A stretch of DNA of 46,108 nt, from NCBI GenBank assembly GCA_003660975.1, contig QMVG01000006.1:1-46108 (forward strand). Direction: 5' to 3'. Under the pieces are notes generated by a model that had not been told where the DNA came from, did no database searches, and saw only the letters and a program-made list of their open reading frames with translations. Source of the DNA: Candidatus Micrarchaeota archaeon (lineage in GTDB: Archaea > B1Sed10-29 > B47-G15). This document shows positions 2,427 through 25,639 of this stretch, one piece after another. The number at the start of each line of letters is the position of its first letter. Position 1 is the first letter of the stretch. A program made the position numbers and the translations under genes.

Positions 2427-3587
2427 ATGTTTGATAAATTCAGAGAATGGTATGAGAATCGACATGAGTATGCAAAAGATTGGAAGGAAAAAACCGGTGG
2501 TAAGGTAGTGGGTTACATATGTACCTATATCCCCGAGGAAATTCTCTATGCGGCAAACGTACTGCCAGTCAGAATTCTCGGAGGGCATGAACCAGAAAGC
2601 ATTGGCTTAGCAGAACCGTATCTTTTTGGGATGTACTGTCCCTTTTGTAGGGACTGTCTCGCACAGGGGCTTCAGGGGAAATATGCCTATCTGGATGGGA
2701 TAGTGATAGGCCAATCATGCATCCATATAAGGCAAACGTTTTTCTCTTGGAGGCAGAGAATCCCTCATGAGTTCGACCATTATATCCCTATGCCAATGAA
2801 TGTCGTGACCCCCCGCGCCTCGATCCCTTTTCTCAGGAAAGAGCTTGAGATCTTTAAGTCAGCCTTAGAAAGGTGGCTTGAGAAGGAAATAACCGATGAT
2901 GATCTGCGCAGAGGAATCGAGATAGTGAATAAAAACCGCAGACTGATGAAAAAGGTTTACAATTTAAGGAGAGAGCCGAACCCGAAGCTTACGGGCCTTG
3001 AAGCCATGTACATGGTGGTGTCAAGTCAATTGACGGATAAAAACGAGCACTCGGATGCGATTGAGGAGATGTTTAATAATGGACTGGCTACCAGGGATTT
3101 GGGAAGGGAGTCGAGCATTAGATTAATGACCGTGGGAAGTGAAAATGACGACGTTGAATTTACTAAAATGGTTGAGGAGACGCTTGGAGCTACTATTGTC
3201 ATAGAAGATCATTGTACGGGGAGCCGATATTTTTGGGAAGAGGTAAAACTCGATGAAAAAGATCCGCTTACTGCTATTGCAGAGCGTTATGTAACAAGAA
3301 CGCCCTGCCCTCAAAGGGATTGGGAACCTGAAAGAATTCGATTTAGGAGAATACTTGACCTCATTGAAGAGTTTGGAGTACAAGGGGTTCTGCTTATACA
3401 GCAGAAGTTCTGTGACCCACATGAGCTTGATATTCCTGCTCTTCGAGATCTTCTGAATGAAAAAGGAATTAAAAATTATTTCCTCGAGTTTGATGTAACT
3501 GTACCTGTAGGACAATTCAGAATAAGGGTAGAGGCATTCTTAGAGACGTTCGCTTCGGATGAGCTTTTTGCCGAGGACATAGTATAA
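2427..3587 (+). CDS. bzdN: Benzoyl-CoA reductase, Bzd-type, subunit N
   Basis: N-terminal FREWYENRHEYAKDWK, CPFCRD, SC and KFCDPH Fe-S ligands (HgdB/BcrC family); SD GGGAGG. Confidence 0.92.
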   Translation: MFDKFREWYENRHEYAKDWKEKTGGKVVGYICTYIPEEILYAANVLPVRILGGHEPESIGLAEPYLFGMYCPFCRDCLAQGLQGKYAYLDGIVIGQSCIHIRQTFFSWRQRIPHEFDHYIPMPMNVVTPRASIPFLRKELEIFKSALERWLEKEITDDDLRRGIEIVNKNRRLMKKVYNLRREPNPKLTGLEAMYMVVSSQLTDKNEHSDAIEEMFNNGLATRDLGRESSIRLMTVGSENDDVEFTKMVEETLGATIVIEDHCTGSRYFWEEVKLDEKDPLTAIAERYVTRTPCPQRDWEPERIRFRRILDLIEEFGVQGVLLIQQKFCDPHELDIPALRDLLNEKGIKNYFLEFDVTVPVGQFRIRVEAFLETFASDELFAEDIV

Positions 3588-3608
3588 AATCGCATGAGGG
3601 AAGACAAA

Positions 3609-4949
3609 ATGGACTCCGAGAACAAGTATCCCACAGAAGGTTTTAAGTGCTGGAAGAAGGCTAAGGAACTTCGCTTACAGTATTACAAAAATTATATGCA
3701 GGCGAAGGAGAAAGGCGGGATAAGGTGGGCTGGAAATGCTCCTAGCATTGATGCTGTTCCATACGGGCTGGGAGATGATGTCTATCACCTGACAGGAGAA
3801 CCTTATGGAGCTACTGTAGCTTACAATAAAGAATTTGCTAGGAGATGTCATGAAGTAGTTGAGGCAAAAGGATATGCGCGGGATCTCTGTGCTTATATGA
3901 GAAATTATTGGGGTTCTGTCTTGCTCAACGAATTCGTATTTGGAGGTCCATTCCCGAAGCCGGATTTCATGTGGGTCTTGCATAGTTGCTGCAGTCACGC
4001 AAAGTGGTATCAAGAGGCGAGCAGGATAGAGGGTGGGATTCCGTATTTCGTTATAGATTGGAGTGCTGGAATGTACTACAAGTGGGATGAAAAGAGGGAA
4101 GATTATGTGGTTGATCCTAACCAAGAGCACAGAATTCAATATCTTGTGGATCAGATGCAAGAAGGAATAGAGTGGCTTGAAGATATTACGGGAAGAGAAT
4201 ACGACGACGAGAAACTTATTCAAGCGGCAAAGAACTATTTCGAAAGTACCTCGCTGTGGGCAGAGATCTGCACATTGAACCAGGCTATACCCGCCCCCAT
4301 GGATGAAAAGACCATGTATTCATTTTATGTTTTCGCGGCCCTTCACAAAGCCCATAGGGAAGTAGTGGAATTTTACAAGGAACTGAGAGATGAGATGAGG
4401 GACAGAGTGGCGCGGGGTATAGCGGCGATCCCCAATGAAAAAGCAAGGATAATGACTGATATCCAGCCGCCATGGGGATTTCTGGAGATATATAGGTATA
4501 TGGAAAGTTATGGGGTTGTGAGCATAGGATCCTTCTATACATTTACGTTAATGGGCCACTGGGAAATTGCCGAAGACGGTACATTCCGGCCCAGGACTAC
4601 GCCTATGGAGAAAGGAATAGAGATACGCACGAGGGAGGATGCCTTACGATTGCTCGCTGATTGGGCACTGGGGCTGCCTATGGCGCAGATTTTTTATGAT
4701 CATCGATTTAAAAGTCATATCATGAAAAAAATATTCACTCAGTGGAAGTGTAATGGAATTATTATGCACTTTAACCGAGGATGTGAGGGACTTACTCTGG
4801 GAGTAGCGGAAAATAAACAAGCGCTCGTAGAAGCAGGTATTCCTGTCGCCTATTACGAAGGAAACATGGGTGACGAGAGGGAATTTGAACTCGCAACGGT
4901 AAAAGAACAAATAACAGCTTTCATAGAATCCCTCGGGTTAATCAAGTAG
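3609..4949 (+). CDS. bzdO: Benzoyl-CoA reductase, Bzd-type, subunit O
   Basis: KYPTE..KAKELR, GEPYGA, RDLCAYMR, CCSHAKWYQ, NRGCEG and EGNMGDEREF. Alternative start at 3594. Confidence 0.92.
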   Translation: MDSENKYPTEGFKCWKKAKELRLQYYKNYMQAKEKGGIRWAGNAPSIDAVPYGLGDDVYHLTGEPYGATVAYNKEFARRCHEVVEAKGYARDLCAYMRNYWGSVLLNEFVFGGPFPKPDFMWVLHSCCSHAKWYQEASRIEGGIPYFVIDWSAGMYYKWDEKREDYVVDPNQEHRIQYLVDQMQEGIEWLEDITGREYDDEKLIQAAKNYFESTSLWAEICTLNQAIPAPMDEKTMYSFYVFAALHKAHREVVEFYKELRDEMRDRVARGIAAIPNEKARIMTDIQPPWGFLEIYRYMESYGVVSIGSFYTFTLMGHWEIAEDGTFRPRTTPMEKGIEIRTREDALRLLADWALGLPMAQIFYDHRFKSHIMKKIFTQWKCNGIIMHFNRGCEGLTLGVAENKQALVEAGIPVAYYEGNMGDEREFELATVKEQITAFIESLGLIK

Positions 4950-4960
4950 GAGGACTGAGG

Positions 4961-5740: not shown

Positions 5741-5754
5741 GGAGGTTCAGGAGA

Positions 5755-6648
5755 ATGGCAACAGAGAAAAAAGAATATTGGCGATGGCATGAATATAACT
5801 GGCACGACCCTGACATAGACTGGAGGGATGCGGAAATAATAACTGCAGGTGTAGATGTGGGCTCAGTGAGCTCCCAAGCGGTAATCCTTGTGGATGGGAA
5901 GATATATGCCTGTGCCAATATGAGAACCGGGCATAGTTCTCCGGAAAGCGCCCGGAAAGTGGCCAATTGGGCGTTAGAAGGCACAGGGATGAGGATCGAG
6001 GATATCCATTATGTAGTAGGCACCGGGTATGGTCGTGTAAAGGTTCCCTTTGCCAATAGAGCTATTACTGAAATCGCTTGCCATGCACGAGGGGCGGTGG
6101 AGATATATGGTAATTCTGTAAGAACTGTATTGGACATGGGAGGGCAGGACCTTAAAGTAATTCGTTGTGATGAAAGGGGAAAGGTGCTCAATTTCCTGAT
6201 GAATGAAAAGTGTGCTGCTGGGACTGGTAGAGGTATGGAAGTGATGGCCGATTTGTTGGGAGTCCCTATCGGTGAGGTAGGCCCTCGTTCCCTCCAAGTA
6301 GATGAAGAGCCGCCTCCGGTTAGCAATACATGTGTCTTGTTTGCGAAGTCGGAAGCCTTAGGACTCCTAAGGGAAGGGTGGCCCACTGAAAAAGTACTCG
6401 CTGCCTTTTGCAGGGCAATGACGGATAGAGTATACGCCTTACTCGAGGAACTGGGTGTGCAGAGAGATCTCGCTATTACTGGCGGTATAGCGAAGAATGT
6501 CGGTATCGTTAAGAGATTGGAGAGAAAATTGGGTTTTGAGGCTTTGAAGACAGAGAAAGATCCGCAGCTTGCCGGCGCTTGGGGAGCTGCTCTTTTTGCA
6601 AAGGTCTTGTACCAGAAGGAGAGAGCACAAAAGAGGCAAGCTTGCTAA
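5755..6648 (+). CDS. bzdQ: Benzoyl-CoA reductase ATPase/activator subunit Q
   Basis: YWRW.E N-terminus, GVDVGSVSSQ, TGYGR, DMGGQD, CAAGTGRG, CVLFAKSE. Confidence 0.92.
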   Translation: MATEKKEYWRWHEYNWHDPDIDWRDAEIITAGVDVGSVSSQAVILVDGKIYACANMRTGHSSPESARKVANWALEGTGMRIEDIHYVVGTGYGRVKVPFANRAITEIACHARGAVEIYGNSVRTVLDMGGQDLKVIRCDERGKVLNFLMNEKCAAGTGRGMEVMADLLGVPIGEVGPRSLQVDEEPPPVSNTCVLFAKSEALGLLREGWPTEKVLAAFCRAMTDRVYALLEELGVQRDLAITGGIAKNVGIVKRLERKLGFEALKTEKDPQLAGAWGAALFAKVLYQKERAQKRQAC

Positions 6649-7737
6649 ATGGGAACCCTGCGGATAAATGAGCGGGAGGTGTCCTTCCAAGATGGGCAAA
6701 CTATCCTTGAAGTCGCGTTGGAGAATGGCATCTACATACCTCATCTTTGTACCCGCCGGGGTCTGTCTTCCCCGAAAGGATTGCTGTCGTCCGAGATAGT
6801 CTACAGGGGAGAAAAGGTCTACAGAGGCCAAAAGGGAAGGAAATATGAGGGCTGTGGTCTGTGTGTTGTACAAATAGAAGGTGGAAGGATAGTTGAATCG
6901 TGTGTGACAAAGGCTGAAGACGGCGCAGTCGTTTACACAAACACTCCCGAGATCGTCAAAAGAAGGCGCGAGAACCTTAGCAAGATTCTTGAAAAACATC
7001 CCCATGGATGTCTTCTTTGCCCACAACGAGAGGGATGTGACAGAAAGACTTGTTCATTTAACGTACCCGAGGAAGAGAGATGTTGCTGGAAATTTGGTGC
7101 CTGCGAACTGGAAAAATTAGCAGAATATGTGGGAATAGAAGGAGGATTACCCTCTTATAGAGCTCAGCGTGAAATAGTAAATGATAATCCATTCTTTTTT
7201 CGGGATTATACCTATTGCATTGGTTGCCTCAGGTGCGTAGTTGCCTGTAAAGAGATTGTGGGAGCGGAGGCCCTTGGGTTTGTTTGGGTTGATGGCGAGA
7301 TCGTTGTCGGGTTTAAGAGCTCTACCGCTATTGAAGCGGGTTGCAGGTTTTGCGGCATATGCGTTGATGTCTGTCCAACAGGTGCGCTCCGACACAAAGA
7401 GAGTAAAGTGGCTTCAAAGCGAAAGGCGGTTCTTCCCTCGACTATATATCCGCCCGAAAGATGGTTGCCATTCACTGAAGAAAACATTATGAGCGTGCCA
7501 GAAGAGGAAGGAGTATATCAACTCTATGACGAGCAGAGGAATCTCTACAAGGTGATCGGCACAGAAAACCTTAAAAAAGCGCTTTTAGAAGAAATCGAAT
7601 CAGGATGCAGGGCGAGTTATTTCACATACGAGGAAGATCTTATGTACACCTCTCGAGAAAGACAGATTATCCAGCAATATGTGAAGAAGCACGGAAGGTT
7701 GCCTCCCGGTAATGACGAAATGGAGGAGCTCTTTTGA
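6649..7737 (+). CDS. BzdV-like multi-Fe-S protein lacking a flavin/NAD(P) domain
   Basis: NuoG-like 2Fe-2S N-terminus, HPHGCLLC, CIGCLRCVVAC and CRFCGICVDVCP, then a C-terminal GVYQLYD domain; no GxGxxG motif. Confidence 0.7.
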   Translation: MGTLRINEREVSFQDGQTILEVALENGIYIPHLCTRRGLSSPKGLLSSEIVYRGEKVYRGQKGRKYEGCGLCVVQIEGGRIVESCVTKAEDGAVVYTNTPEIVKRRRENLSKILEKHPHGCLLCPQREGCDRKTCSFNVPEEERCCWKFGACELEKLAEYVGIEGGLPSYRAQREIVNDNPFFFRDYTYCIGCLRCVVACKEIVGAEALGFVWVDGEIVVGFKSSTAIEAGCRFCGICVDVCPTGALRHKESKVASKRKAVLPSTIYPPERWLPFTEENIMSVPEEEGVYQLYDEQRNLYKVIGTENLKKALLEEIESGCRASYFTYEEDLMYTSRERQIIQQYVKKHGRLPPGNDEMEELF

Positions 7738-9541: not shown

Positions 9542-9576
9542 TTTCCTAAGGAGACCCCCTTAAGAAGGAGGTGTCT

Positions 9577-11532
9577 ATGTCTGGGCGGACAGATAAAGTA
9601 AAATTGTTAAAGAGCATCTACGAACTCTCAGCAGAGGAGCCATACCCAGTTGCTGCAGGTTTTAAAGCGAATACCATTCCGGCTCTTTTTTTAGAAAGGT
9701 GCAATCGGACGCCTAAGGGGGTGGCCTTCAAGTACAAAGATCGGGGTCTCTACAAGGAGGTCACTTGGGAACAATATCGGGATCATGTCGAGAACTTTTG
9801 TCTCGGATTGGTAGAAATGGGATTGGAGAGGGGGGATAGGGTAGCCATAATGGGAGATCCTTGTCCTGAATGGCTATATGCTGACATTGCAGTTCAGAGC
9901 GCCGGAGCGATCAGTTACGGTATCTATTCAACGAGTTCGGTTTCGGAGACGAAGTGGATGGTTGAAAATGCAGGTGCGAAGTTCTTTGTCGCTCAGAACC
10001 AAGAATTTGTTGACAAGATCCTACCGGTAGCGGATGAGTTACCCCTTTTGCAGAAAATAATCGTTGCGGACACCAGTGCTATGTTCATGTACAACGACTC
10101 GCGGATTGTCAGTTTTACGGAGGTTGAAGAGATTGGAGCTGAAATGAAACAAAAAAGGCCCCGATTGTTTGAGGAGCTGGTGTCCAGAGTCGAACCAGAC
10201 GACGTCGCAACTATGATTTACACCTCGGGGACGACTGGCGTACCTAAAGGGGTCATGATAACTCATCGAAATTTGCTCTGGGAAAGGCTGGAGTTGGCAT
10301 TTCTTGTTCCGGAGTTCTTCAACGAGAAGGCAAGAAGTGTGGCTTACTTGCCCCTTGCTCATATTTTGGCGAGACTTCAAGACGAATATCTACCAATGGT
10401 GGCAAATCATGTAACGCACATTGGGGAAAGTCCGGATCTTATGGCTGAAACAATGTACGAGGTCTCTCCGACCATCTTTTTAGGGGCGCCACGTACGTTA
10501 GAGAAATTTGCGGCTCAGGCATTGGTGGGGATAGAGGCGAGTAGTTGGTTAAAGAAGCAATCGTACAGATTAGCGATGAAGATTGGTCGGAAATACATGA
10601 GCAGAAAATGGGAGTCCAAGCCATCCCCGATATTGTGGTTTCTATACAAGCTTGCGCGGCTTTTGGTTTTTCGCCCTCTTTTAGAAAAATTGGGATTTGC
10701 AAAAGTTCGGTTCTGCCTAGTGGGGGCTACTCCCGTCCCTCCTGAAATCCTTGCCTTGTGGCAAGTTTGGGGCGTACCCGCGGGCGAGATGTACGGGCAA
10801 ACGGAGGGTGGAAACATAAGCGCTCAGCTAAAGCCCTTTGCCAAACCAGGCACAGCCGGTAAGATGTTTCCCAGGGTTGAATGGAAGCTCACCGACAATG
10901 GAGAGTTGCTGGTGAGAGGCCCAGGGGCTTTTTTGGGCTACTGGGGGGATGAGGAATCCACACGAAAAGTAAAAGATGAAGAAGGTTGGGTCCATACGGG
11001 CGACGTGGTTAAGTTCACGGAAAACGGAGAACTAAAGGTAGTCGATCGTCTCAAAGACATCCAAATAACCGCTGGTGGAAAGAATATATCTCCTTCTGAA
11101 ATAGAGAAGACGCTTAAAACAAGTCCCTATATAAGCGAGGCCATAGTATTTGCCGACGGCCGCAAGTTTCCTGCGGCCCTTATTGAAATTGATTTTGATA
11201 CCGTCTCGGAGTGGGCAAGGAATAATAACGTTCCTTATACGGGTTTTACCAGCCTTGCTCAACATCCTAAAGTTTACGAACTCATAGCAAACGAGGTCGC
11301 AAAGGCGAATGAACAGCTTGCGAGGGTCGAACGAGTAAAAAGATTTCGTATTCTGCCCAAGGAATTTGATCCTGAAGATGAGGAGGACCCAATAACTTCG
11401 ACGAGGAAGATTAAGAGACAAAAAGTTTATGAAAAATTCAAAGATCTGGTCGAGTCAATGTTTGAGGAGCAAAAAGAGGAGAAAGAAATCATAGTCAGTG
11501 AATTGGGGGAGATTAAAGAAAAAATATATTAA
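9577..11532 (+). CDS. Long-chain-type acyl-CoA synthetase of the transporter-associated kind
   Basis: YTSGTTGVPKG, YLPLAH, YGQTE, TGD, GGKNISP, TSTRKIKR; AGGAGG precedes ATG 9577. Confidence 0.88.
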   Translation: MSGRTDKVKLLKSIYELSAEEPYPVAAGFKANTIPALFLERCNRTPKGVAFKYKDRGLYKEVTWEQYRDHVENFCLGLVEMGLERGDRVAIMGDPCPEWLYADIAVQSAGAISYGIYSTSSVSETKWMVENAGAKFFVAQNQEFVDKILPVADELPLLQKIIVADTSAMFMYNDSRIVSFTEVEEIGAEMKQKRPRLFEELVSRVEPDDVATMIYTSGTTGVPKGVMITHRNLLWERLELAFLVPEFFNEKARSVAYLPLAHILARLQDEYLPMVANHVTHIGESPDLMAETMYEVSPTIFLGAPRTLEKFAAQALVGIEASSWLKKQSYRLAMKIGRKYMSRKWESKPSPILWFLYKLARLLVFRPLLEKLGFAKVRFCLVGATPVPPEILALWQVWGVPAGEMYGQTEGGNISAQLKPFAKPGTAGKMFPRVEWKLTDNGELLVRGPGAFLGYWGDEESTRKVKDEEGWVHTGDVVKFTENGELKVVDRLKDIQITAGGKNISPSEIEKTLKTSPYISEAIVFADGRKFPAALIEIDFDTVSEWARNNNVPYTGFTSLAQHPKVYELIANEVAKANEQLARVERVKRFRILPKEFDPEDEEDPITSTRKIKRQKVYEKFKDLVESMFEEQKEEKEIIVSELGEIKEKIY

Positions 11533-12798: not shown

Positions 12799-12835
12799 AG
12801 CTAGGCGTTTCACATTTAAGAAGAGGGGACAAAGG

Positions 12836-13021
12836 GCAGCCGTGTAAACAAAGCGAGTGTGGCGGCTTAGGTCTGATAAATGCAGGTAACAAGTAAGTTG
12901 GACGAGAACGAGGTTCTATAACCATCAAAAAACGAGGAGGAGTCCGATGACTTATCGCAGATCGCAAGCCGGCTGTCAGAGGGATTCGCAACCTACTCGA
13001 ATGGCTTACAAGGGTGCCTAA
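12836..13021 (+). mobile_element. Possible IS256-family left-end remnant with a 24-codon ORF (12947-13021)
   Basis: CAGCCGTGTAAACAAA end-like sequence; strong SD GAGGAGGAG plus ATG; a shifted frame reads GIRNLLEWL. Resemblance is from memory only. Confidence 0.3.
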
Positions 13022-13902: not shown

Positions 13903-13904
13903 TC

Positions 13905-14981: not shown

Positions 14982-14983
14982 CG

Positions 14984-15796: not shown

Positions 15797-15799
15797 GTA

Positions 15800-16594: not shown

Positions 16595-16709
16595 TTTGCT
16601 TCAATAAGCTGATCGAGCGCTGTCACTCGAAAGGTATAGCTCAGACAAAAGATCTTCACATTGAGATCTGCCTACGAGAGGATGTGGAATTCGGTACTTC
16701 TAATGCTCG

Positions 16710-17008
16710 GCGCTGATAGGAAACAGGGCCTACCGGAGGTATCTCAGAATTGAGGGTACGGGGCCATCTTGGAGCAGGACCGGTCAGAGAGGAGGCCAGA
16801 TACGATGGAAAGTACGTCCTGAGGATCAATACCGGTCTTTCTCCCGAGGAAGTGGCCCTTGCCTACAGGGGCTGTGGCAGGTGGATGGGTGGTTCAAGGT
16901 ATGTTTTGAGGACTGAGCTTTAGAGCCGTAGGGATGAGGCCGCGGGGAGGGTGTGCCTCTAATATCTTGAAATCCTTATATTTTTGTTGAAGAGGCGTCA
17001 AAGTCGGG
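16710..17008 (+). pseudogene. Degraded IS1634-family transposase 3' fragment with right end
   Basis: Frameshifted fragments LIGNRAYRRYLRIEG / EEARYDGKYVLRINTGLSPEEVALAYR / LWQV / YVLRTEL / RAVGMRP, ending in GTCAAAGTCGGG. Confidence 0.8.
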
Positions 17009-17062: not shown

Positions 17063-17356
17063 CTACCATGAATGGCTCAGGGCGTCGTTAGGGCAAGCCT
17101 TTACACAGGGAAGCGTAGGCTTCTCTACCCCCACTGGCTTACAAGGGGCACAACTGTATTTTATCTTTTTCTTATGCTCGTCAGCCACAACCGGCACAGG
17201 TTCGTCCCGCAACGGATCCGTGGGGTCTTCCCCCATCACCAGCACCCCATAAGGACAGGCCTCTGCACACTTTCCGCATCCATTGCACTTATCCGTATTC
17301 AAAATAATGAAGTACTCCCCTGAGCCGTCCTTATATCCGTATCGAGCGATAGCCAT
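17063..17356 (-). CDS. bzdM: BzdM-type ferredoxin (electron donor to benzoyl-CoA reductase)
   Basis: YGYKDGSGEYFI N-terminus, CNGCGKCAEACP, CAPCKP...PCVKACP, C-terminal HSW. Confidence 0.85.
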   Translation of the reverse strand: MAIARYGYKDGSGEYFIILNTDKCNGCGKCAEACPYGVLVMGEDPTDPLRDEPVPVVADEHKKKIKYSCAPCKPVGVEKPTLPCVKACPNDALSHSW

Positions 17357-17774: not shown

Positions 17775-17790
17775 CGGCATAGATATTGCT
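17775..17790 (+). promoter_or_regulatory. sigma54 promoter of the ring-opening/beta-oxidation operon
   Basis: CGGCATAGATATTGCT: GG(17776-77)-N10-GC(17788-89). Confidence 0.75.
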
Positions 17791-17957
17791 GAGTCGAAAT
17801 TCGAAAAACTCCCGATCGTGGAAAGGGAGACTGCCGAAAAGCTTGGGATATCCCTCGAGATGATTTTTTTAAGATGAAGTTTTCAATTCGGAATACAGAG
17901 TTTTTGAAAAACTGACAGTAAAAGCGATCATCAGTGAGAAAGGGTGAGGAGGGGGAG

Positions 17958-18221
17958 ATGAGTGTGGGTGGAATTCGAAGGGATGTTCGACATTGCGAGG
18001 ATCCCTTATATATAAAAATTGTGGAGGTAGAAGAGGAACCGGAGGTAGAGTTTGTCGTTAGCATGGAAAAAACAAGGCTCGCCCAGAGAAAAGTGGGTAT
18101 GATTCGGTCCCTTCTTGAAAAGGATAAGGATAAGGAAAAAAAGAAAAAGACTGCAGAAGGAAGTAGCAGGAATACCCCTCTCAAGCCTTCCCGGAGGAAT
18201 AAATGGAACGAATTGCGGTAA
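17958..18221 (+). CDS. Small hypothetical protein (87 aa, acidic middle, Lys-rich tail)
   Basis: Strong SD GAGGAGGGGG before ATG 17958; overlaps the next gene; no motif recognised. Confidence 0.45.
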   Translation: MSVGGIRRDVRHCEDPLYIKIVEVEEEPEVEFVVSMEKTRLAQRKVGMIRSLLEKDKDKEKKKKTAEGSSRNTPLKPSRRNKWNELR

Positions 18222-19417
18222 AAATGCCAGAGGGTGAGTTTACTCCAGAGTTGATAGAAGAAATGAGATCGAAACGTGGCCTTAAACTCCGGGTAGAGGG
18301 CCATGTCTTCAATGAAGAGGCAACCCGTGGCGCCATTAAAAGATTTGCCGATGGGATAGGTGATCCCAACCCGCTGTGGAGAGATGAAGAGTATGCCAAA
18401 AGAACTCGATATGGTTGTATCGTCGCTCCTCCCTCGTGGGTTTTTAGTGTGCTGGCTGGGATTCAATTCGGATGGAGAGGACTCGCTGGGTTCCATTCTG
18501 GCAGTGATATGGAGTTCTACTTGCCCATCTTAGTAAACGATGTGATAAAACCCGAAGAGACGTTCCTCGATTTCGAAGGACCAAAGCCAAGCGAGTTTGC
18601 CGGAAGGATGGTTGTGGACTATTTCGAAGACAAATATTTTAACCAAAGAGGGCAGCTTATCGCCAAGGTATTGAGGTGGGTTATTAGAACTGAAAGGAAA
18701 AAGGCACGGGAGAAAGGGAAGTATAAGAGAGTTGAACTTCCCCACCAATGGTCTGAGGAGGAATTAAGACAAATAGAAGAGGAAGTTTTAGAAGCAGAAA
18801 TTCGGGGTTCTGAACCCCGATTTTGGGAAGATGTCGAAATTGGACAGGAGTTAAAGCCCGTAGTGAAAGGCCCTCTCGGTATAACGGATAATATCGCTTT
18901 TATCATAGGGGGTGGTGCTCCGGTGAAGCTTGAGGCTCACGAGGTTGCTCTGAGGAAATATAGGAAACATCCTGCTTGGGCATTCAGGGATCCGAACACT
19001 TATGCCTTAGAGCCCATCTTCGCCGTTCATTATAACAAAGAGGCTGCGTTGGCAATGGGCCTTCCATATCCGTACGATGTAGGTACTCAGAGACATTCGT
19101 GGCAGATCCATCTTTTGACGAACTGGATGGGAGACGAGGGGTGGTTGAAGAGAAGCAGGGCGGAATATCGGAGGTTTGTCTACCTCTCTGATGTGATTCG
19201 CCTTACTGGAAGGGTAGTCAAGAAATATTTGGATGAGAACGGTGAACACTGTGTAGATATCGAGACTCATGCCTTCAACCAGCGCGGCGAAGACACAATG
19301 CCGGGAACCGCAACCGTGATTTTACCCTCGAGAGAAGACCCTGAAGAAAAATGGCCTGTTTCGATGAGGATAAAAATCCTAGAAGGACAGGGGGGTAACC
19401 AAGACCATATAGATTGA
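18203..19417 (+). CDS. Tandem hot-dog (MaoC/FAS1-like) acyl-CoA dehydratase/hydratase
   Basis: IKRFADGIGDPNPLWRDEEYA..TRYG..APP; second domain FWEDVEIGQEL, VHY, NWMGDEGWL. Confidence 0.75.
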   Translation: MERIAVKMPEGEFTPELIEEMRSKRGLKLRVEGHVFNEEATRGAIKRFADGIGDPNPLWRDEEYAKRTRYGCIVAPPSWVFSVLAGIQFGWRGLAGFHSGSDMEFYLPILVNDVIKPEETFLDFEGPKPSEFAGRMVVDYFEDKYFNQRGQLIAKVLRWVIRTERKKAREKGKYKRVELPHQWSEEELRQIEEEVLEAEIRGSEPRFWEDVEIGQELKPVVKGPLGITDNIAFIIGGGAPVKLEAHEVALRKYRKHPAWAFRDPNTYALEPIFAVHYNKEAALAMGLPYPYDVGTQRHSWQIHLLTNWMGDEGWLKRSRAEYRRFVYLSDVIRLTGRVVKKYLDENGEHCVDIETHAFNQRGEDTMPGTATVILPSREDPEEKWPVSMRIKILEGQGGNQDHID

Positions 19418-19429: not shown

Positions 19430-20089
19430 GTGAAGGAATATCTTGAATCGACAGAATTCATTGAGAGCGATCATCCTGAAATATCTGCATGCGCCAAAGA
19501 ACTCACGAGGCACATAGAGGAGGAGCAAGAAAGAGTAAAGGCTCTTTTTTATTTTGTAAGGGACAGGATTTCTTTTAGGCCTCTTTTTTTTAATTATCTG
19601 CCTAAAGAGGAATTCAAAGCCAGTGCGATCCTAAAGAGAGGTTATGGCTTTTGCATCATGAAAGCTATTCTACTTATCTCACTCTTGCGGAGTATTAACA
19701 TCCCAGCAAGGCTTATCTTAGCGGAGATCAGACATTATCAACTGCCTGAGACCGTAAAGCTTGGACTGAAAAGCGACGTGATTCTCCATGGCTTCGCTGA
19801 AGGTTTTCTCCAAGGGAATTGGGTAAAGCTTAATCCGACGTTTGACATTAAATATTGCGAGATAATGGATTACATCCCTACGGAATTCGATGGTGAGAAA
19901 GATGCCCTTTTCCACCCTACGGACAGGAAGGGCAGAAAACTGATCGATTATATAAACGTTTTGGGCCACTTTACGGATTTGCCTTATGAGTTCATGCTGG
20001 AGCATATCAGGAAAAGGTACGGCATCCTGGACAGGAGATTCTTCGATAACGTCAATAAGGGCGAAAGCTTTTACAAGGGATGGTCATAA
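19430..20089 (+). CDS. Transglutaminase-like (cysteine protease fold) protein
   Basis: YLESTEFIESDHP, LFYFVRD, GYGFCIMKA, IPARL, HG, WVKLNPTF. Confidence 0.8.
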   Translation: MKEYLESTEFIESDHPEISACAKELTRHIEEEQERVKALFYFVRDRISFRPLFFNYLPKEEFKASAILKRGYGFCIMKAILLISLLRSINIPARLILAEIRHYQLPETVKLGLKSDVILHGFAEGFLQGNWVKLNPTFDIKYCEIMDYIPTEFDGEKDALFHPTDRKGRKLIDYINVLGHFTDLPYEFMLEHIRKRYGILDRRFFDNVNKGESFYKGWS

Positions 20090-20106
20090 ACACAGGAGGT
20101 GAGCAA

Positions 20107-21069
20107 ATGGGAACTGAAAGAAAGTTCATACCGAGGGAGCCCGATGAGTATAACTTCCAAGATATCATCTATGAGAAGAAAGACTGGGTTGCCACAATCA
20201 CTATCAACCGGCCTGAAAAACTCAACACCTACCGTACTGAAACCCTCATAGAAATGGGCCAAGCCTTTCTGGACGCCTCTTGGGACGATTCTATAGCTGT
20301 AGTGGTTCTGACGGGCGCTGGCGATAAGGCCTTCTGCACTGGTGGGGATGTAGATGAGTACGCTACATGTTACACGACGACTCCTCGCGACTTCTGGAAA
20401 TGGGGAAACCTCTTCTGCAGGACTATGGAACTCCTCAGACACATCGGGAAGCCTACTATAGCGAGGATAAATGGTATGGCCGTAGGCGGTGGTAATGAAT
20501 GGCATATAGCATGCGATCTTTCAATAGCTGCAGAGCACGCCCAATTCTTTCAGGTTGGGGTCGGGGTTGGATCTGTGGCTGCGGCCTCATGCTGGTTCCT
20601 TCCTCTTCTCCTTGGGGATAGGAGGGCTAGGGAGATGCTCCTTCTTAATAGGCGCTTGGACGCTAAAACTGCTTTAGATTGGGGGTTGGTGAATAGGGTG
20701 GTGCCATATGAAAAGCTGGATGAAGCCGTCCAGGAAATGGCAGATCAATTGATCAACAAGTTCCCGGAGTGCCTCCGGTACACTCTTCAGCAGGTTAACT
20801 TTTTCAAGGACATCCCTGCCGCCATATTGGGAGGTCACGCTACGGAATGGCTCAGCATTCATTTCACCTCGCCGGAACCGTACGAAGGAATGTGGTCTTT
20901 TGTAGAGAAGAGGAAACCTGATTACATGAAGCTGCGAAAACTTGCTGCTGAGGGGAAGAGCTCAGAATATTTGTGGGGAGCTCCGGTAAAAGCCTGCTCC
21001 AAGTGTGGAGCTAAGGGGTTACCCGGGGAGTTTAAGTTCTGTGGGAATTGTGGGGCAGCGCTTGAATAG
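20107..21069 (+). CDS. oah: Crotonase-family ring-opening hydrolase, Oah/BzdY-like, with a C-terminal zinc ribbon
   Basis: LTGAGDKAFCTGG..EYA..Y, GGGNEW, KFPEC; CSKC...CGNC tail; pathway context. Confidence 0.65.
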   Translation: MGTERKFIPREPDEYNFQDIIYEKKDWVATITINRPEKLNTYRTETLIEMGQAFLDASWDDSIAVVVLTGAGDKAFCTGGDVDEYATCYTTTPRDFWKWGNLFCRTMELLRHIGKPTIARINGMAVGGGNEWHIACDLSIAAEHAQFFQVGVGVGSVAAASCWFLPLLLGDRRAREMLLLNRRLDAKTALDWGLVNRVVPYEKLDEAVQEMADQLINKFPECLRYTLQQVNFFKDIPAAILGGHATEWLSIHFTSPEPYEGMWSFVEKRKPDYMKLRKLAAEGKSSEYLWGAPVKACSKCGAKGLPGEFKFCGNCGAALE

Positions 21070-21128
21070 ATGTAGAGGTGAGTCATAGAGCCGACCGAGG
21101 GTTGTTTTTGCGCGAGGAGGTATCTGTG

Positions 21129-22313
21129 ATGGGTGTAAGGCTGGAAGATGTAGTGATAGTCGGGGTCGGCAGAACTGCAAGAGGCAAATTTGGTGGGACT
21201 CTCAAAGACATGGATGCTGACGATATGTCGGCTGCGCTCCTGCGAGGTTTGTTTCAGAAAGTAGGGCTGGAACCGGGCGTGGTTGACTTCGTCTTTTGGG
21301 GCCAGACCCGGCAGGCCGGTTATGGAGGCAATCCTGCTAGGGCCGTAGCCTTCAAAGCCGGCATCCCGATAGAAGTTCCTGCTTCTACCATAAACATGAC
21401 GTGCATCTCGGCTATGCAGGCAGTGATTCAGGGGATCCGTATGATCATGTTGGGAGACGCTGAGGTGGTCGTAGCCGGCGGAATGGAGAATATGTCGGGT
21501 TGTAACTATATCCTGAAGGGAGCGAGATGGGGATTTAGAAGTGGCCATCAGACGGTAGTGGACGACTTATACATCCCCTGTAGGCTCTGTGGGCTCAATA
21601 TGGTGGCCACAGCGGATAAGTTGGCTAAGGAGTATGGAATTCCAAGGGAGGAGCAGGATAGCTTCGCTTATGAGAGCCACATGAAAGCTATTAAAGCCCA
21701 AGACAGCGGCTGGTTTGACGAAGAGATTATCCCCATCGAGGTCCCCCAGAAAAAAGGACCAGCAATTCTCTTTGATAAAGACGAATGCATGCGAAGGGAT
21801 ACCAGCCCAGAGAAGCTTGCAGCGCTCAAGCCTGTCTATGGAGGGGGGACGGTCACGGCAGGTAACGCCTGTCCTTTGACTGATGGAGCTAACGGTGTGA
21901 TTCTGATGTCGAGAAAAAGGGCTAGGGAGCTCGGCTTTGAACCCCTGGCGTCTTTTCTATCCTACCATACGGTCGGGGTCGATCCCTCAATTATGGGCGT
22001 CGGGCCGATCTACGCAGTGCCGAAGGCCCTTGAGAAAGCTGGCCTCAAAGTGGACGACCTGGATCTGGTGGAATATAACGAGGCGTTTGCTTGTGTCGTT
22101 CTCTTGGGTATAAAGGTCCTCGGGCTGAATCCTGAAAAGGTAAACATCCATGGTGGTGCAATAGCCTTGGGGCACCCTACTGGGAGCACCGGGTCTCGAC
22201 TGATCGTAACGCTTTATCATGCCCTCAAAAGAACCGGTGGGGAAATTGGCCTCGCTACCCTCTGTGGCGGAGGAGGACTTGGAGGCGCAGTGATCATAAG
22301 GAGGGAGGCATAA
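21129..22313 (+). CDS. Acetyl-CoA C-acyltransferase (thiolase)
   Basis: TINMTC, GGMENMS, NEAFA, GHPTG, CGGGG. Confidence 0.92.
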   Translation: MGVRLEDVVIVGVGRTARGKFGGTLKDMDADDMSAALLRGLFQKVGLEPGVVDFVFWGQTRQAGYGGNPARAVAFKAGIPIEVPASTINMTCISAMQAVIQGIRMIMLGDAEVVVAGGMENMSGCNYILKGARWGFRSGHQTVVDDLYIPCRLCGLNMVATADKLAKEYGIPREEQDSFAYESHMKAIKAQDSGWFDEEIIPIEVPQKKGPAILFDKDECMRRDTSPEKLAALKPVYGGGTVTAGNACPLTDGANGVILMSRKRARELGFEPLASFLSYHTVGVDPSIMGVGPIYAVPKALEKAGLKVDDLDLVEYNEAFACVVLLGIKVLGLNPEKVNIHGGAIALGHPTGSTGSRLIVTLYHALKRTGGEIGLATLCGGGGLGGAVIIRREA

Positions 22314-22318
22314 GAGAG

Positions 22319-23059
22319 ATGCTTCTGAAGGGGAAAATTGCTATTGTGACCGGTGGAAATCAAGGTCTTGGTTATGCTATGGCAGAGGAGTTCAGTAGAG
22401 AGGGGGCAACGGTAGTGATTGTTAATAGAAGAGGCGAAAAAGGAACGGAAGCGGCAGAGCGGATAAATAAAACGGGAGGCCGGGCGATTGCTATCCCGTG
22501 CGATATCAGCGACATTGATCAGGTTGCTGGGATGGTAAAAAAGGCCAAGGCACAGTTTGGCAGAGTAGATATTCTCGTAAATAATGCAGGGGTCATAAAT
22601 CCTGCAATGATTCACAAGATGTCAAAAGAACAGTGGGAAGAGGTTTTGTATATCAATCTTACAGGCTATTTCAACTGTATAAGGTGTGTGTGTGAGGTGA
22701 TGATCTCGCAGAGATATGGCAGGATACTGAACATTTCGTCAGTCGCCGGCCAACGAGGCACCATTGGTCAGGTCAACTACGCAGCTGCAAAAGCAGGGGT
22801 ACATGGCCTTACAAAAGCAGCGGCTAAGGAACTCGCCCGCTACAACATTACAGTGAATGCTATCGCGGCCGGCCTTTTTAAGACCGCGATGAGCGATAGG
22901 ATGCCTGAAGATCTGAAACAAAAGGCCATAGATGAAATTCCCTTGAAAAGGATGGGCGAGCCTTGGGAGCTGGCAAAGCTGGCGGCCTTTCTGGTTAGCG
23001 ATAATGCAGCCTATATCACGGGCCAGGTAATCGGGATCAACGGAGGGATATATATGTAA
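22319..23059 (+). CDS. FabG/PhaB-like short-chain dehydrogenase (3-hydroxyacyl-CoA dehydrogenase or 3-oxoacyl reductase)
   Basis: TGGNQGLG, NNAG, SS, YAAAK. Confidence 0.88.
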   Translation: MLLKGKIAIVTGGNQGLGYAMAEEFSREGATVVIVNRRGEKGTEAAERINKTGGRAIAIPCDISDIDQVAGMVKKAKAQFGRVDILVNNAGVINPAMIHKMSKEQWEEVLYINLTGYFNCIRCVCEVMISQRYGRILNISSVAGQRGTIGQVNYAAAKAGVHGLTKAAAKELARYNITVNAIAAGLFKTAMSDRMPEDLKQKAIDEIPLKRMGEPWELAKLAAFLVSDNAAYITGQVIGINGGIYM

Positions 23060-23094: not shown

Positions 23095-23532
23095 TTGAAA
23101 AACGTGGAAGATTTCATGGAAGTGAGGGTTAGATATAGGGATACCGATAGCACAGGGAGGATCTTTTTCTCCCGCTACTTGGAGTTCTTCGACGATGCCG
23201 TCATCGAGTTCTTCCGTGGGAAAGGAATCATCTTCGATGGTGCGGGTCACCTCTTTCTTGATGGTCAGCAAAAGGAAGCGACCTTCGTGGTGGGGGAGTG
23301 CCAATGCCGTTTCCTGGATGAAACTTTCTTTGACGACCTTCTAGAGGTGATCACGGAGTTAAAGGAGCTGAGCGAGCGGAAGGTAATTCTGGGGTTTACT
23401 TGTTACAATAAGACCAAAGGGAGGATCTGTGTCCAAGGCTCCATGATCTTGGTGTGCTTCGATCCCGTATCGAGACGTTCTGCGAGGGTTCCGGATGAGG
23501 TGAGGGAGAGGCTGTTGAGGGGAAAGGACTGA
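23095..23532 (+). CDS. 4HBT/YbgC-family acyl-CoA thioesterase
   Basis: VRVRYRDTDSTGRIFFSRYLEFFD with catalytic Asp. Start is TTG 23095 or ATG 23116. Confidence 0.85.
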   Translation: MKNVEDFMEVRVRYRDTDSTGRIFFSRYLEFFDDAVIEFFRGKGIIFDGAGHLFLDGQQKEATFVVGECQCRFLDETFFDDLLEVITELKELSERKVILGFTCYNKTKGRICVQGSMILVCFDPVSRRSARVPDEVRERLLRGKD

Positions 23533-23813: not shown

Positions 23814-24584
23814 ATGAAATACGAAAATATTATATACGAAAAAAAAGATGGAGTTGCGAGCATCGTGATCAACCGGCCTCCCCTGAATATCCTTACCACT
23901 AATACTATGAGAGAGATAACCAACGCCTATAAGGACGCAGAAGCGACGGCGGATATCAGGATTGTAATAATCAGAGGAGCTGGGGAGAAAGCCTTTGCTG
24001 CCGGGGTAGATGTAAGGGATCACCTGCCAGAAGTGATGCACGACATGCTAGAAGCCTTTGAGGAGATGATGGTGACGATCGCAAACGGGAAAAGATGTTC
24101 CCTGGCCGTAGTGGACGGGATTTGTTCAGGTGGTGGTTTCGAGTTGGTCCTTTGTTGCGACATGATCATAGCCACTGAGAAGGCAACCTTCTCTCTTCCG
24201 GAAATAACACTTTCTCTTTATCCAGGTTTAGGGATAGTCGCGTTGCCGAGAAAGATTCCAATGAACATAGCCTTCGAGGTCATCACGAGCGGAACTCCTA
24301 TAAGCGCCGAGGACGCACATCGCTTGGGGCTGGTTAACAGGGTAGTTCCTCGGGAAAAGGTTGATGAGGAGTTGGAAAAATTCCTTGCCGGGTATAGGGA
24401 CAAAAGTGCCAAGGCTCTCGAACTGACAAGATACGCTTTGCGGAGATCATGGGACATGGAGTTTTCGAAGGCTTTAAAGACGGTTGACGATATTTATATC
24501 GGCCTGGTTATGCAAACTGAGGATGCGAACGAAGGTTTGAGATCCTTTTTTGAGAAAAGAAAGCCAGTTTGGAAGCACAAATAA
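23814..24584 (+). CDS. dch: Cyclohexa-1,5-diene-1-carbonyl-CoA hydratase (Dch/BzdW-like)
   Basis: NRPPLNIL, AFAAGVDVRDH, GGGFEL, PEI, EDANEGL; context. Confidence 0.8.
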   Translation: MKYENIIYEKKDGVASIVINRPPLNILTTNTMREITNAYKDAEATADIRIVIIRGAGEKAFAAGVDVRDHLPEVMHDMLEAFEEMMVTIANGKRCSLAVVDGICSGGGFELVLCCDMIIATEKATFSLPEITLSLYPGLGIVALPRKIPMNIAFEVITSGTPISAEDAHRLGLVNRVVPREKVDEELEKFLAGYRDKSAKALELTRYALRRSWDMEFSKALKTVDDIYIGLVMQTEDANEGLRSFFEKRKPVWKHK

Positions 24585-24604
24585 GGGAAATAGGAGGTGT
24601 GCTA

Positions 24605-25639
24605 ATGGCTAAGATGAAGGCCGCGATCTTTAAGGAAACGAATAAACCTCTTGAGGTCACCGAAATTGATAAGCCTGTGATTGAGGAAGACGAGGACGTA
24701 ATAGTCAAGGTAGTTGCTTGCGGACTATGCCATACGGACTTGGGTTATATAGATTACGGCGTCCCAACTTTCAAAAAACCGCCCTTAGTGCTTGGTCACG
24801 AGCCCTCAGGTATTGTGGAAGAAATAGGGTCAAAAGTCACCAACGTGAAAGTGGGGGATAGAGTCCTCATTGGTCCCATCACCTGTGGGAACTGTTTTTA
24901 TTGCCGTAATGGCAGGGAAAACATCTGCCAGTCAATGATGATGATCGGAAACAATCTTGACGGGGCATTCGCTGAATACGTGAAGGTTCCAGCCAGATGT
25001 CTCGTTAAGCTACCCGAAGAGTTACCTCTCAAAGAGAGTTGTGTCATTTCAGATGCAGTTGTTTCCCCGTATCATGCTGTGAAACGGAGAGCAAAGGTTG
25101 GTCTCGGGGACTGGGTGGCGGTTTTCGGATGTGGCGGTGTAGGGATAAACTGCGTACAGTGGGCCAACTTAGCGGGAGGCCTCGTGATCGCGGTGGACAT
25201 AATGGATCACAAGCTGCAACTCGCTAAGGAACTGGGGGCCGTAGCGATAGTCAATGCAAAGAAAGTGGAAAACGTGCCCAAAGAGGTAAGGAAAATTTCT
25301 GGTGGAGGGGTAGATATCGCTATGGAATGTATAGGAAACCCCGACGTGATCACTCAGGCCTTCGATGCTACAAGGGATGGTGGGAAGGTTTGCGTAGTGG
25401 GATATTCCTTCAAATCCCCCCCTCTTAAAGCCGCGAGATTGATGTACCGGGAGATGGAAATCACAGGGTCAATTGCTGGTTTAGTCTCCGATTATGAGAG
25501 GATCTTTAATTTGATAAAGACTGGTAAATTTAGAGTGGATAGGCTCATTACTTCAAGATATCCCTTGGACAAGATCAACGAGGCCTTTGATGAACTAAGA
25601 AAAGGGGAGGCAATAAGGATTATCGTAGAGATGGAATAG
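24605..25639 (+). CDS. had: 6-hydroxycyclohex-1-ene-1-carbonyl-CoA dehydrogenase (Had/BzdX-like Zn-dependent ADH)
   Basis: GLCHTDLGY..GV.T...PLVLGHE, CGNCFYC..C, GCGGVG; adjacent to dch. Confidence 0.8.
   Translation: MAKMKAAIFKETNKPLEVTEIDKPVIEEDEDVIVKVVACGLCHTDLGYIDYGVPTFKKPPLVLGHEPSGIVEEIGSKVTNVKVGDRVLIGPITCGNCFYCRNGRENICQSMMMIGNNLDGAFAEYVKVPARCLVKLPEELPLKESCVISDAVVSPYHAVKRRAKVGLGDWVAVFGCGGVGINCVQWANLAGGLVIAVDIMDHKLQLAKELGAVAIVNAKKVENVPKEVRKISGGGVDIAMECIGNPDVITQAFDATRDGGKVCVVGYSFKSPPLKAARLMYREMEITGSIAGLVSDYERIFNLIKTGKFRVDRLITSRYPLDKINEAFDELRKGEAIRIIVEME

Follow-up and report, generated by a model that had tools for sequence, protein, structure and literature searches.

Contig QMVG01000006.1, deposited with a Candidatus Micrarchaeota archaeon (assembly GCA_003660975.1), is 46,108 nucleotides (nt) long, and the whole of this contig, hereafter called the window, was analysed. 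A foreign block of 26.7 kb (~2,204-28,857) within the window holds 22 genes, all of them open and with products of family length. The block begins with genes resembling bzdN, bzdO, bzdP, and bzdQ, in that order, which encode the two catalytic and two ATP-binding subunits of a predicted benzoyl-coenzyme A (CoA) reductase, and continues with genes for iron-sulfur (Fe-S) proteins, CoA ligases, an ATP-binding cassette (ABC) importer, ring-processing enzymes, and a two-component regulatory pair. Here, we describe a computational analysis of this block, which is probably a compact, mobile island for dearomatisation of aryl-CoA by a Bzd-type system, carried by a host from Desulfobacterota. Its reductase falls within a subclade that has a variant ring pocket, accessory genes of its own, and its own regulation.

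The reductase genes (2427-6648) passed the equivalog models for BzdO and BzdQ, and the best solved relatives of the two catalytic subunits were BzdO and BzdN of Aromatoleum (Azoarcus) sp. CIB (PDB 8s02_A and 8s02_B; E-values 1.7e-160 and 1.2e-126). Matches to 2-hydroxyisocaproyl-CoA dehydratase in the PDB were far weaker (E-values 2e-32 and 1.5e-37), those to MbdO and MbdN of Thauera were weaker still, and a BzdO search of a plasmid collection returned only Bcr- or dehydratase-type matches of at most 25% identity. An identity as 2-hydroxyacyl-CoA dehydratase was ruled out by the HadB and HadC models, which scored 143.9 against a cut-off of 750 and 169.9 against 700, in agreement with the Bzd-type class I assignment of an initial annotation of this DNA. 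The named residues of the Aromatoleum BzdNO structure (PMC11971306) were carried over via HMMER alignments. In BzdO, 12 of the 16 are identical (Glu65, Cys95, Tyr97, Cys128, His131, Gln274, Tyr298, Leu302, Cys380, Glu381, Gly382, and Leu383), including the ligands of the aqua-[4Fe-4S] cluster (Cys95, Cys128, and Cys380) together with Glu65 and His131, which form the acid/base pair, and Tyr97, Tyr298, and Gln274, which contact the thioester, as described in that paper. In BzdN, all six named residues surrounding the [8Fe-9S] cluster (Arg53, Ser239, Arg267, Arg290, Gln324, and His330) and seven aligned cysteines are kept. A Bzd-type class I enzyme is thereby supported, predicted from its sequence to be an ATP-dependent aryl-CoA reductase.

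The four remaining BzdO residues are changed (Ser44>Asn, Trp46>Pro, Gln124>Val, and Thr125>Leu), and the subunit carries a 12-residue insert relative to that of Aromatoleum. The hydrophobic surroundings of the benzoyl ring in the Aromatoleum structure consist of four side chains, Trp46, Tyr97, Leu302, and Leu383, and Ser44 lies 3.6-4.0 Å from ring carbon 3 (PMC11971306). Three members of this quartet are kept in the window and the fourth, Trp46, is proline, so the ring pocket departs from the published one. The natural distribution of this change was followed in the best 120 of 1,715 BzdO homologues from a large protein collection and in the BzdO sequences of 86 fetched loci. A 116-row tree, built by a quick method with support from the Shimodaira-Hasegawa-like approximate likelihood ratio test (SH-aLRT) and no bootstrap, places the window protein inside a 24-row clade (SH-aLRT 100) and, within it, an 11-row subclade (SH-aLRT 99). 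Residues were counted in 201 rows, a 206-row alignment minus five long-branch or outgroup rows. Trp46 is found in 0 of the 24 clade rows, as against 174 of the 177 rows outside; the position is Pro in 10/10 rows of the window's group and is taken by nine different residues among the other 14 clade rows. Position 44 is Asn in all ten rows of the window's group, as against Gly in 176 of the 177 outside rows. The clade is also changed beside the active-site residues Gln274 and Tyr298, with Thr273>Ile in 24/24 rows and Leu297>Phe in 14/24. Because the ring pocket is rebuilt, a non-benzoate substrate is plausible, as is the substituted benzoate that the initial annotation had suggested.

All five named clade members that were looked up belong to bins labelled Thermodesulfobacteriota, Syntrophales, or Deltaproteobacteria, and two cluster look-ups gave bin names alone, with no cultured organism. 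The Trp46-keeping majority includes Asgard archaea, Thermoplasmatota, Bathyarchaeota, Planctomycetota, Ignavibacteriota, Bacteroidota, Aminicenantes, and others. A genome scan with BzdO returned 50 loci, all at or below 61% identity and none from Desulfobacterota. Three remoter BzdO-like proteins (L092, L093, and L097; 43-46% identity) have Glu at the Trp46 position and represent another pocket type. No description of a Trp46-less clade was found in the literature searched, including the Trp46 passages of PMC11971306, whose supplements with the contact map and alignments lay outside the search; a search for a 3-hydroxybenzoyl-CoA reductase cluster gave nothing relevant. Class I genes of the Bzd type have been reported in strict-anaerobe bins from seep sediment, Deltaproteobacteria included (PMC6472368), and from deep-sea Chloroflexi (PMC5736913). 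With these reports and that of a class I reductase in sulfate-reducing cultures (PMC12016498), the occurrence of class I in strict anaerobes, which the initial annotation had offered as new, was already published. The kind of system is thus known, and the new point is a pocket-variant reductase clade with its own ligase, hydratase, and regulators.

This accessory set emerged from three metagenome contigs (L054, L055, and L056; 38-45% GC) whose BzdO proteins are 81-84% identical to that of the window. Common to all three are the importer, the kinase/regulator pair (inverted), BzdNOPQ, the Fe-S oxidoreductase, and the 550-amino-acid (aa) type of ligase, and the double hot-dog hydratase lies directly behind the ligase where the contig reaches far enough. 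Gene presence was counted in 59 other Bzd loci of at least 12 kb, with a match required over at least 60% of the query. The ferredoxin (42-66% identical) and the Fe-S oxidoreductase each occur in 52 of the 59, the 550-type ligase in five (two close, three at 27%), the kinase in two, and the hot-dog hydratase in one; given this rarity, ligase, hydratase, and regulators are the subclade's own. Upstream of bzdN, a -24/-12 element, TTGG(C/T)AT-N5-TTGC, is invariant in the window and the three relatives (4/4), whose upstream regions are otherwise 61% alike, and it fits control by the island's own σ54 activator. As σ54-like patterns are not above chance window-wide (20 against 15.1 +/- 3.9), the conserved site before bzdN alone counts. 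Regulators known from these pathways include BzdR, BadM, BgeR, and the two-component pair BamVW (PMC6678401). One relative, L056, carries a three-gene molybdoenzyme of the xanthine dehydrogenase family (2Fe-2S, molybdenum cofactor, and FAD subunits; L056:15563-19579) between its oxidoreductase and ligase genes, which hints at a hydroxylated substrate in that relative. It falls short of a 4-hydroxybenzoyl-CoA reductase at equivalog level, since the alpha-subunit model, the best one, reached 382 against a cut-off of 995, level with xanthine dehydrogenase at 375.

The electron supply of the window's system differs from that of its relatives. In these, an Fe-S oxidoreductase of ~850 aa combines a 2Fe-2S domain, two 4Fe-4S domains, a DPD-type 4Fe-4S domain, a GltD-like pyridine-nucleotide/FAD domain, and a C-terminal DUF7508. 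The 362-aa protein of the window aligns with the L055 protein in two parts, residues 1-262 with 29-291 and residues 259-362 with 747-850, so that ~292-746 (Fer4_20 and Pyr_redox_2) are gone. This deletion of ~455 residues is in frame, retains both end domains, and removes the NAD(P)H/FAD module. Among the 65 loci with a match, the oxidoreductase is full length in 52. In the 13 others the protein is truncated by the end of the locus (at it or no more than ~100 nt away) or, in a single case, matched over its N-terminal part alone; none of the 65 has the same internal gap. Four public runs from four studies (X1-X4) were compared, as Logan contigs, with at most 20 kb of the window, the left border included. 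Contigs of X1 and X2 run across the deletion point, and so does an independent contig from X3 (1,593 nt, three differences); the deletion is not an assembly slip. The "BzdV-like" protein of the initial annotation is therefore present as an Fe-S protein, in the form of an internally deleted copy, and the description of the system as self-contained is weakened. The ferredoxin gene, which stands directly behind bzdQ in the four loci with listed positions, is displaced and inverted in the window.

Table 1. Features of the window, in order of position; scores in bits are given with the model cut-off where one applies.
Feature	Position	Strand	Evidence and remarks
tRNA-Leu(CAA); left border, likely integration target	2111..2198	+	ARAGORN; sole tRNA in the window; GC drop starts directly behind
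18-nt direct repeat, left copy (last 13 nt of tRNA and next 5 nt)	2186..2203		Sequence reading
σ54-type -24/-12 promoter before bzdN	2366..2381	+	Pattern match; 46 nt before bzdN start codon
BzdN-like subunit (double-cubane [8Fe-9S] carrier)	2427..3587	+	TIGR03190 448.5 vs 453.8
BzdO-like catalytic subunit, rebuilt ring pocket	3594..4949	+	TIGR03191 570.7 vs 448.6
BzdP-like ATP-binding subunit, 259 aa	4961..5740	+	TIGR00241 activase domain 210.8 vs 125.4; 73-75% identical in L054-L056
BzdQ ATP-binding subunit	5755..6648	+	TIGR03192 416.8 vs 380.2
Fe-S protein, 362 aa, internally deleted copy of ~850-aa Fe-S/GltD-like oxidoreductase	6649..7737	+	2Fe-2S, 2x 4Fe-4S, DUF7508; alignment to L055 protein
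Medium-chain (ACSM/MacS-like) acyl/aryl-CoA ligase, 550 aa	7712..9364	+	PRK04319 386.7; MbcS 339.5; benzoate-CoA ligase family 217.4 vs 375
FadD11-like long AMP-forming ligase, 653 aa, adjoins importer	9571..11532	+	NF038343 381 (below cut-off); Pfam AMP-binding and AMP-binding_C_3
Liv-type ABC importer, five genes (binding protein, two permeases, two ATPases)	11545..16594	+	Components 64-78% identical in L055 and L056
Repeated-element fragment	16709..16944		Doubled depth in all four runs; loose ends at 16709, 16885, and 16944
BzdM-like 2x[4Fe-4S] ferredoxin	17063..17356	-	Pfam Fer4
Possible second σ54 promoter before hydratase operon (weak)	17775..17790	+	Pattern match, two mismatches
Double hot-dog (MaoC/FAS1-type) enoyl-CoA hydratase, 404 aa, clade-specific partner	18203..19417	+	Pfam FAS1_DH_region and MaoC; 70-71% identical in L054 and L055
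Transglutaminase-core-like protein	19430..20089	+	PF01841 E-value 2.5e-13
MenB/BadI-like crotonase, 329 aa, with C-terminal zinc-ribbon tail; candidate ring-opening hydrolase	20080..21069	+	badI 194.8 vs 467.6; MenB 194.6; oah 148.6 vs 464.45; PDB MenB E-value 4.6e-52
Thiolase	21078..22313	+	TIGR01930 447.3 vs 240.6
FabG-like short-chain dehydrogenase/reductase (SDR); candidate 3-hydroxyacyl-CoA or 2-hydroxy-ring dehydrogenase	22319..23059	+	NF004198 303.4 vs 296; Pfam adh_short
YbgC/FadM-type acyl-CoA thioesterase	23095..23532	+	TIGR00051 66.7 vs 68.7
Crotonase, 256 aa; candidate dienoyl-CoA hydratase	23814..24584	+	ECH_1; TIGR03189 (dch) 116.3 vs 292.5
Zn-dependent medium-chain dehydrogenase/reductase (Zn-dependent alcohol dehydrogenase, Zn-ADH), Had-like	24569..25639	+	TIGR03201 208.9 vs 338.65, near tie with two other, unrelated alcohol dehydrogenase families
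PAS sensor histidine kinase	25712..27370	+	62% identical in L055 and L056
NtrC/AtoC-type σ54 response regulator	27383..28807	+	REC, Sigma54_activat, HTH_8; 67-68% identical in L055 and L056
18-nt direct repeat, right copy	28858..28875		Ends 2 nt before start codon of host radical-SAM gene (first high-GC gene)

The CoA ligases and transporter of the initial annotation are borne out, as are its bzdNOPQ and ferredoxin genes, all in one foreign block. The true start of the 550-aa ligase lies probably ~100 nt later than listed, its counterparts in L054-L056 (62-64% identical) being 515-518 aa long. The importer's binding protein has weak solved relatives only (E-value 5e-8 or worse), hence it gives no clue to the ligand. 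The hot-dog protein was matched in the ESM Atlas by generic FAS1-like dehydratase clusters only, and its gene is preceded by a 99-codon Lys/Glu-rich open frame (17922-18221) with no family match. The names dch, had, and oah, given earlier to three downstream genes, did not stand at equivalog level, and the gene called oah-like scores best as MenB/BadI. Residues ~300-329 of its product weakly match a double zinc ribbon, an unusual addition for this fold. In three loci of Promethearchaeota and uncultured archaea (L028, L031, and L080), homologues of the MenB/BadI-like protein (55-57%) and of the Zn-ADH (50-53%) stand beside Trp46-type Bzd genes, and Zn-ADH homologues of 48-53% identity adjoin a crotonase gene in Asgard Bzd loci. 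A hydrolase of the MenB/BadI type may be a common stand-in for Oah outside Proteobacteria.

The borders of the block are sharp in composition. GC content is ~0.60 at 1-2,000, 0.41-0.52 over 2,001-29,000, and 0.56-0.63 thereafter to the contig end; at the right edge, near 28,870, a span of 300 nt takes it from 0.36 up to 0.60. The earlier end of the block at 25,639, with a regulator placed inside, is not borne out, since the sole regulators lie at 25712-28807, before this break. Pooled GC at third codon positions (GC3) is 0.479 for the 22 island genes (each 0.35-0.65) and 0.81 for 16 flank genes (each 0.73-0.86), two disjoint ranges. The copies of the 18-nt repeat, at 2186-2203 and 28858-28875, are equal at 16 of 18 positions and share the 10-nt exact core ACCTCCGGCA; by our own estimate, a 10-mer from the last 30 nt of the tRNA would fall within 100 nt of the other composition break by chance about twice in 1000. 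The block thus has a tRNA at one border, a far-end repeat of the tRNA 3' end, and a composition unlike that of its host, and it looks like a genuine island of catabolic genes that was gained recently, by insertion at the tRNA-Leu(CAA) 3' end. Horizontal acquisition, already proposed in the initial annotation, follows from the tRNA-Leu border, the flanking 18-nt repeat, and the GC3 gap of 0.33. GC3 is uneven within the island, and this, together with crotonase, Zn-ADH, and MenB/BadI-like best matches that adjoin Trp46-type archaeal Bzd genes, suggests a mosaic origin; we infer the direction of transfer. The repeated-element fragment at 16709-16944 had no Pfam match, no match in the plasmid collection, and no second copy in the bin. 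One frame in 16720-16923 looks like the end of an IS4/IS1634-type transposase, but this reading as a transposase remnant was not adopted in view of these negative searches.

The flanks of the island place the contig outside the genome with which it was binned. They have ~60% GC, as against 39.6-41.6% for the five largest contigs of the source bin. Of the bin's 130 contigs, 49 are below 45% GC (949 kb) and 53 at or above 50% GC (251 kb), a heterogeneity masked by a low contamination figure (0.27). Among the bin's relatives, genome sizes range over 0.3-1.2 Mb, and neither a BzdO nor the methylmalonyl-CoA mutase of the flank occurs in any of 30 (0/30). The nicotinate phosphoribosyltransferase of the left flank is 83% identical, and the methylmalonyl-CoA mutase of the right flank 80-84% identical, to proteins of Deltaproteobacteria/Desulfobacterota bins, which agrees at phylum level with the host guessed in the initial annotation. 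Each match is recorded with a longest contig of 1,094,362 bases, and the two may lie on one contig. On this sequence evidence the contig is assigned to Desulfobacterota (former Deltaproteobacteria), mis-binned into a small 40% GC genome. It follows that neither the GTDB label nor a bamB search of the bin says anything about the host: the bin holds no match to PF02730 (the aldehyde:ferredoxin oxidoreductase family, which includes class II BamB) and none over the cut-off to the Oah model, and it does not represent this contig's host.

The right flank also carries a methylmalonyl-CoA pathway operon (30146-37612) with genes for an acyl-CoA dehydrogenase, MeaB, an alpha-type subunit of methylmalonyl-CoA decarboxylase/carboxyltransferase, a family III CoA transferase, an epimerase, and a mutase split into 556 aa and 138 aa. 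Behind it (37888-46106) come genes for another Liv-type ABC importer, among which a FadD11-like ligase of 648 aa is embedded, and then a PaaK-like ligase truncated where the contig stops. An importer-plus-ligase layout like that of the island is thus already present in the host. Depth was equal across the left border in run X1 (flank 71.1, island 71.4, and 59.0 after the repeat fragment) and close in X2 (54.2, 63.0, and 51.6).

The window's system shares with that of Aromatoleum the N-O-P-Q gene order, the BzdO ligand, acid/base, and thioester residues, the BzdN surroundings (PMC11971306), and a ferredoxin and Fe-S oxidoreductase encoded nearby. Besides the four BzdO substitutions and the insert, it differs in having σ54 and a two-component pair where Aromatoleum has the BzdR repressor (PMC6678401), a ligase of another family, downstream enzymes below the dch, had, and oah cut-offs, and a host in Desulfobacterota rather than among denitrifying betaproteobacteria. 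Uncultured-anaerobe Bzd clusters, and the loci of Asgard archaea, Thermoplasmatota, Planctomycetota, and Ignavibacteriota, likewise have a core of BzdNOPQ, ferredoxin, and the ~850-aa Fe-S/GltD-like protein, with Zn-ADH, crotonase, and MenB/BadI-like genes nearby in some loci; unlike the window, they keep Trp46 (174/177) and lack the subclade's ligase, hot-dog hydratase, and kinase/regulator set. The crotonase, SDR, and MenB-like protein of the window, the last of the 2-ketocyclohexanecarboxyl-CoA hydrolase type and with badI as its best model, resemble the enzymes by which Rhodopseudomonas palustris opens the ring (BadK-BadH-BadI, named in PMC5736913). The window protein scores far below the badI cut-off (195 against 468) and has a zinc-ribbon tail, and a Had-like Zn-ADH is present as well. 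The former deltaproteobacterium Geobacter metallireducens also uses a sensor kinase and activator pair, BamVW, for anaerobic aromatic degradation (PMC6678401). That pair controls class II (bam) genes, unlike the pair in the window, and the likeness is one of description, not of sequence. BamW is σ54 dependent.

A further parallel is found in the sulfate-reducing cultures N47 and NaphS2, which have an ATP-dependent class I tetrahydro-2-naphthoyl-CoA reductase; the NaphS2 cluster is described as homologous to Azoarcus bzdNOPQ (PMC12016498, PMC13689101). The thn operon is ordered as reductase (thnBCDE), ferredoxin, oxidoreductase, two MaoC dehydratases, thiolase, hydroxyacyl-CoA dehydrogenase, and crotonases (Table 1 of PMC12016498). 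The window resembles it, by gene description rather than sequence, in a class I reductase followed by ferredoxin, oxidoreductase, MaoC-type hydratase, thiolase, dehydrogenase, and crotonases. It differs in having one fused double hot-dog protein in place of two small MaoC subunits, and its own importer and ligases, with no counterparts of the thnN, thnO, thnP, and thnT genes listed there.

Starting from the observed gene identities, residue conservation, clade structure, synteny, promoter conservation, composition, repeat, and depth, we infer every enzymatic step and the substrate of the following route. An aromatic acid would be taken up by the Liv-type ABC importer and activated by the medium-chain-type CoA ligase. 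The resulting aryl-CoA would be dearomatised by the Bzd-type class I reductase, in which BzdPQ would spend ATP as electrons pass from ferredoxin to the double-cubane cluster of BzdN and on to the water-bearing [4Fe-4S] cluster of BzdO. The diene would then pass to hydratases (the double hot-dog protein, the crotonase, or both) and to a dehydrogenase (the SDR, the Zn-ADH, or both), after which the MenB/BadI-like hydrolase would open the ring and the thiolase would shorten the chain. Expression would proceed from the σ54 promoter via the island's own PAS kinase and NtrC-type activator.

We assign a probability of roughly 0.7 to the reading that this six-step aryl-CoA dearomatisation route, under its own σ54 control and with a pocket-rebuilt reductase, lies on a recently acquired tRNA-Leu(CAA) island in a high-GC Desulfobacterota chromosome and that the contig is mis-binned. 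A number of observations weigh against it. BzdN is 5 bits under its equivalog cut-off, and the dch, had, and oah models (TIGR03189, TIGR03201, and TIGR03200) all fall far under theirs (116 against 292, 209 against 339, and 149 against 464). Direct repeats of at least 16 nt with a 10-nt seed are abundant here (52 families in 27 kb), so that the telling feature of the 18-nt pair is its position alone, and no integrase or other mobility gene was found among the island's open reading frames of at least 90 aa. No Logan contig bridges the tRNA, the contigs stopping at 2156 and restarting at 2166-2169, and the join of flank and island is thus carried by the original assembly, depth, and the repeat. 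In X3 and X4, flank-like contigs are ~95% alike at a depth of 18-45 and island contigs near-identical at a depth of ~5, a hint of a strain-specific island in a minor strain that a chimera would fit too. Such a chimera, in which the catabolic cluster of a low-GC organism was joined to high-GC DNA via a shared tRNA-Leu and this host has no island, would account for the ~3- to 9-fold difference in depth, for a left border inside a tRNA that repeats in the metagenome (depth doubling and many loose ends at 2152-2198), and for the unbridged tRNA, and the source bin is itself heterogeneous. It is nevertheless very improbable: high-GC DNA matching Deltaproteobacteria bins lies on both sides, the depths are equal in X1 and close in X2, and at the right border an assembler would meet no long shared repeat that allows a jump, but the 18-nt copy of the tRNA end that integration would leave. 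An empty-site form was sought among the loose ends behind 2198; none matches the right flank, although contigs cannot show absence. The altered electron supply is also a difficulty, for without the NAD(P)H/FAD module electrons must come from elsewhere or the system must be impaired. The unique deletion, the ferredoxin gene away from bzdQ, and the repeat fragment at 16.7-16.9 kb could together mark the island as decaying cargo with a non-working system. We regard this as improbable, since all 22 genes are open and of family length, the deletion is in frame with both end domains intact, the island is near-identical across four runs of four studies, and other host enzymes can reduce ferredoxin; korAB is listed beside bzdV as a ferredoxin-regenerating system in PMC5736913.

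The substrate of the island's reductase is harder to assign, and the last of the adverse points applies here: in 10/10 rows of the window's group Val151 is replaced by Trp, which may refill the space left by Trp46>Pro and leave specificity unchanged, and for this reason a changed substrate is not treated as established. On the available sequences, benzoyl-CoA is a possible substrate and a ring-substituted or bulkier aryl-CoA about as likely. An ordinary benzoate pathway, with pocket changes that are neutral or mutually compensating and an enzyme working like that of Aromatoleum, is a possibility to which we give somewhat less than even odds. It is favoured by the retention of every catalytic and thioester-binding residue, by the paired exchange of Trp46 and Val151, by the crotonase, Zn-ADH, and MenB/BadI-like trio that also adjoins Trp46-type Bzd genes in the Asgard loci L028, L031, and L080 (31-34%, 50-53%, and 55-57% identity, respectively), and by a window with no recognised gene for handling a ring substituent. 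Yet Trp46 belongs to the quartet wrapped around the ring (PMC11971306), homologues across many phyla keep it, and in the clade ten different residues take its place; the neighbours of Gln274 and Tyr298 are altered too; the ligase is of the medium-chain rather than the benzoate-CoA ligase family (217 against 375); and the relative L056 has a molybdoenzyme within its cluster. A reaction of the thn type, on tetrahydronaphthoyl-CoA, has a slim chance. The same kinds of genes occur in a similar order in the thn operon (PMC12016498), both systems are from Desulfobacterota, and a fused ring is expected to need a wider pocket, but the island lacks thnN (metallo-hydrolase), thnO and thnT (acyl-CoA dehydrogenases), and thnP (CoA transferase), as listed for thn in PMC12016498 and PMC13689101, and it encodes no old-yellow-enzyme reductases. 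Naphthoate ligase is of the phenylacetate-ligase type (PMC12016498), unlike the island's ligase, and the likeness stems from gene descriptions for N47 and NaphS2. Tentatively, and also at less than even odds, we propose that an undescribed subfamily, with named members exclusively from Desulfobacterota bins, which has lost Trp46, gained Asn44 and Trp151, and changed the neighbours of Gln274 and Tyr298, dearomatises a substrate other than benzoyl-CoA, for example a meta- or para-substituted or ring-fused aryl-CoA, and that it travels together with a ligase, double hot-dog hydratase, importer, and σ54 switch of its own, a module able to insert at a tRNA gene of some distant lineage.

In 2025, the residues holding the benzoyl ring were named from the first class I reductase structure. 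A clade found in nature with the whole catalytic machinery and a replaced ring-holding Trp offers a direct test of substrate range in enzymatic Birch reduction, and could widen the known range of aromatic acids degraded without oxygen in marine sediments. The window is furthermore a probable case of a pathway of this kind that moved, as a compact island, between lineages whose base compositions lie far apart. It also illustrates how, through the mis-binning of a contig, aromatic degradation can be ascribed to an organism with a small genome that almost certainly does not have that ability.

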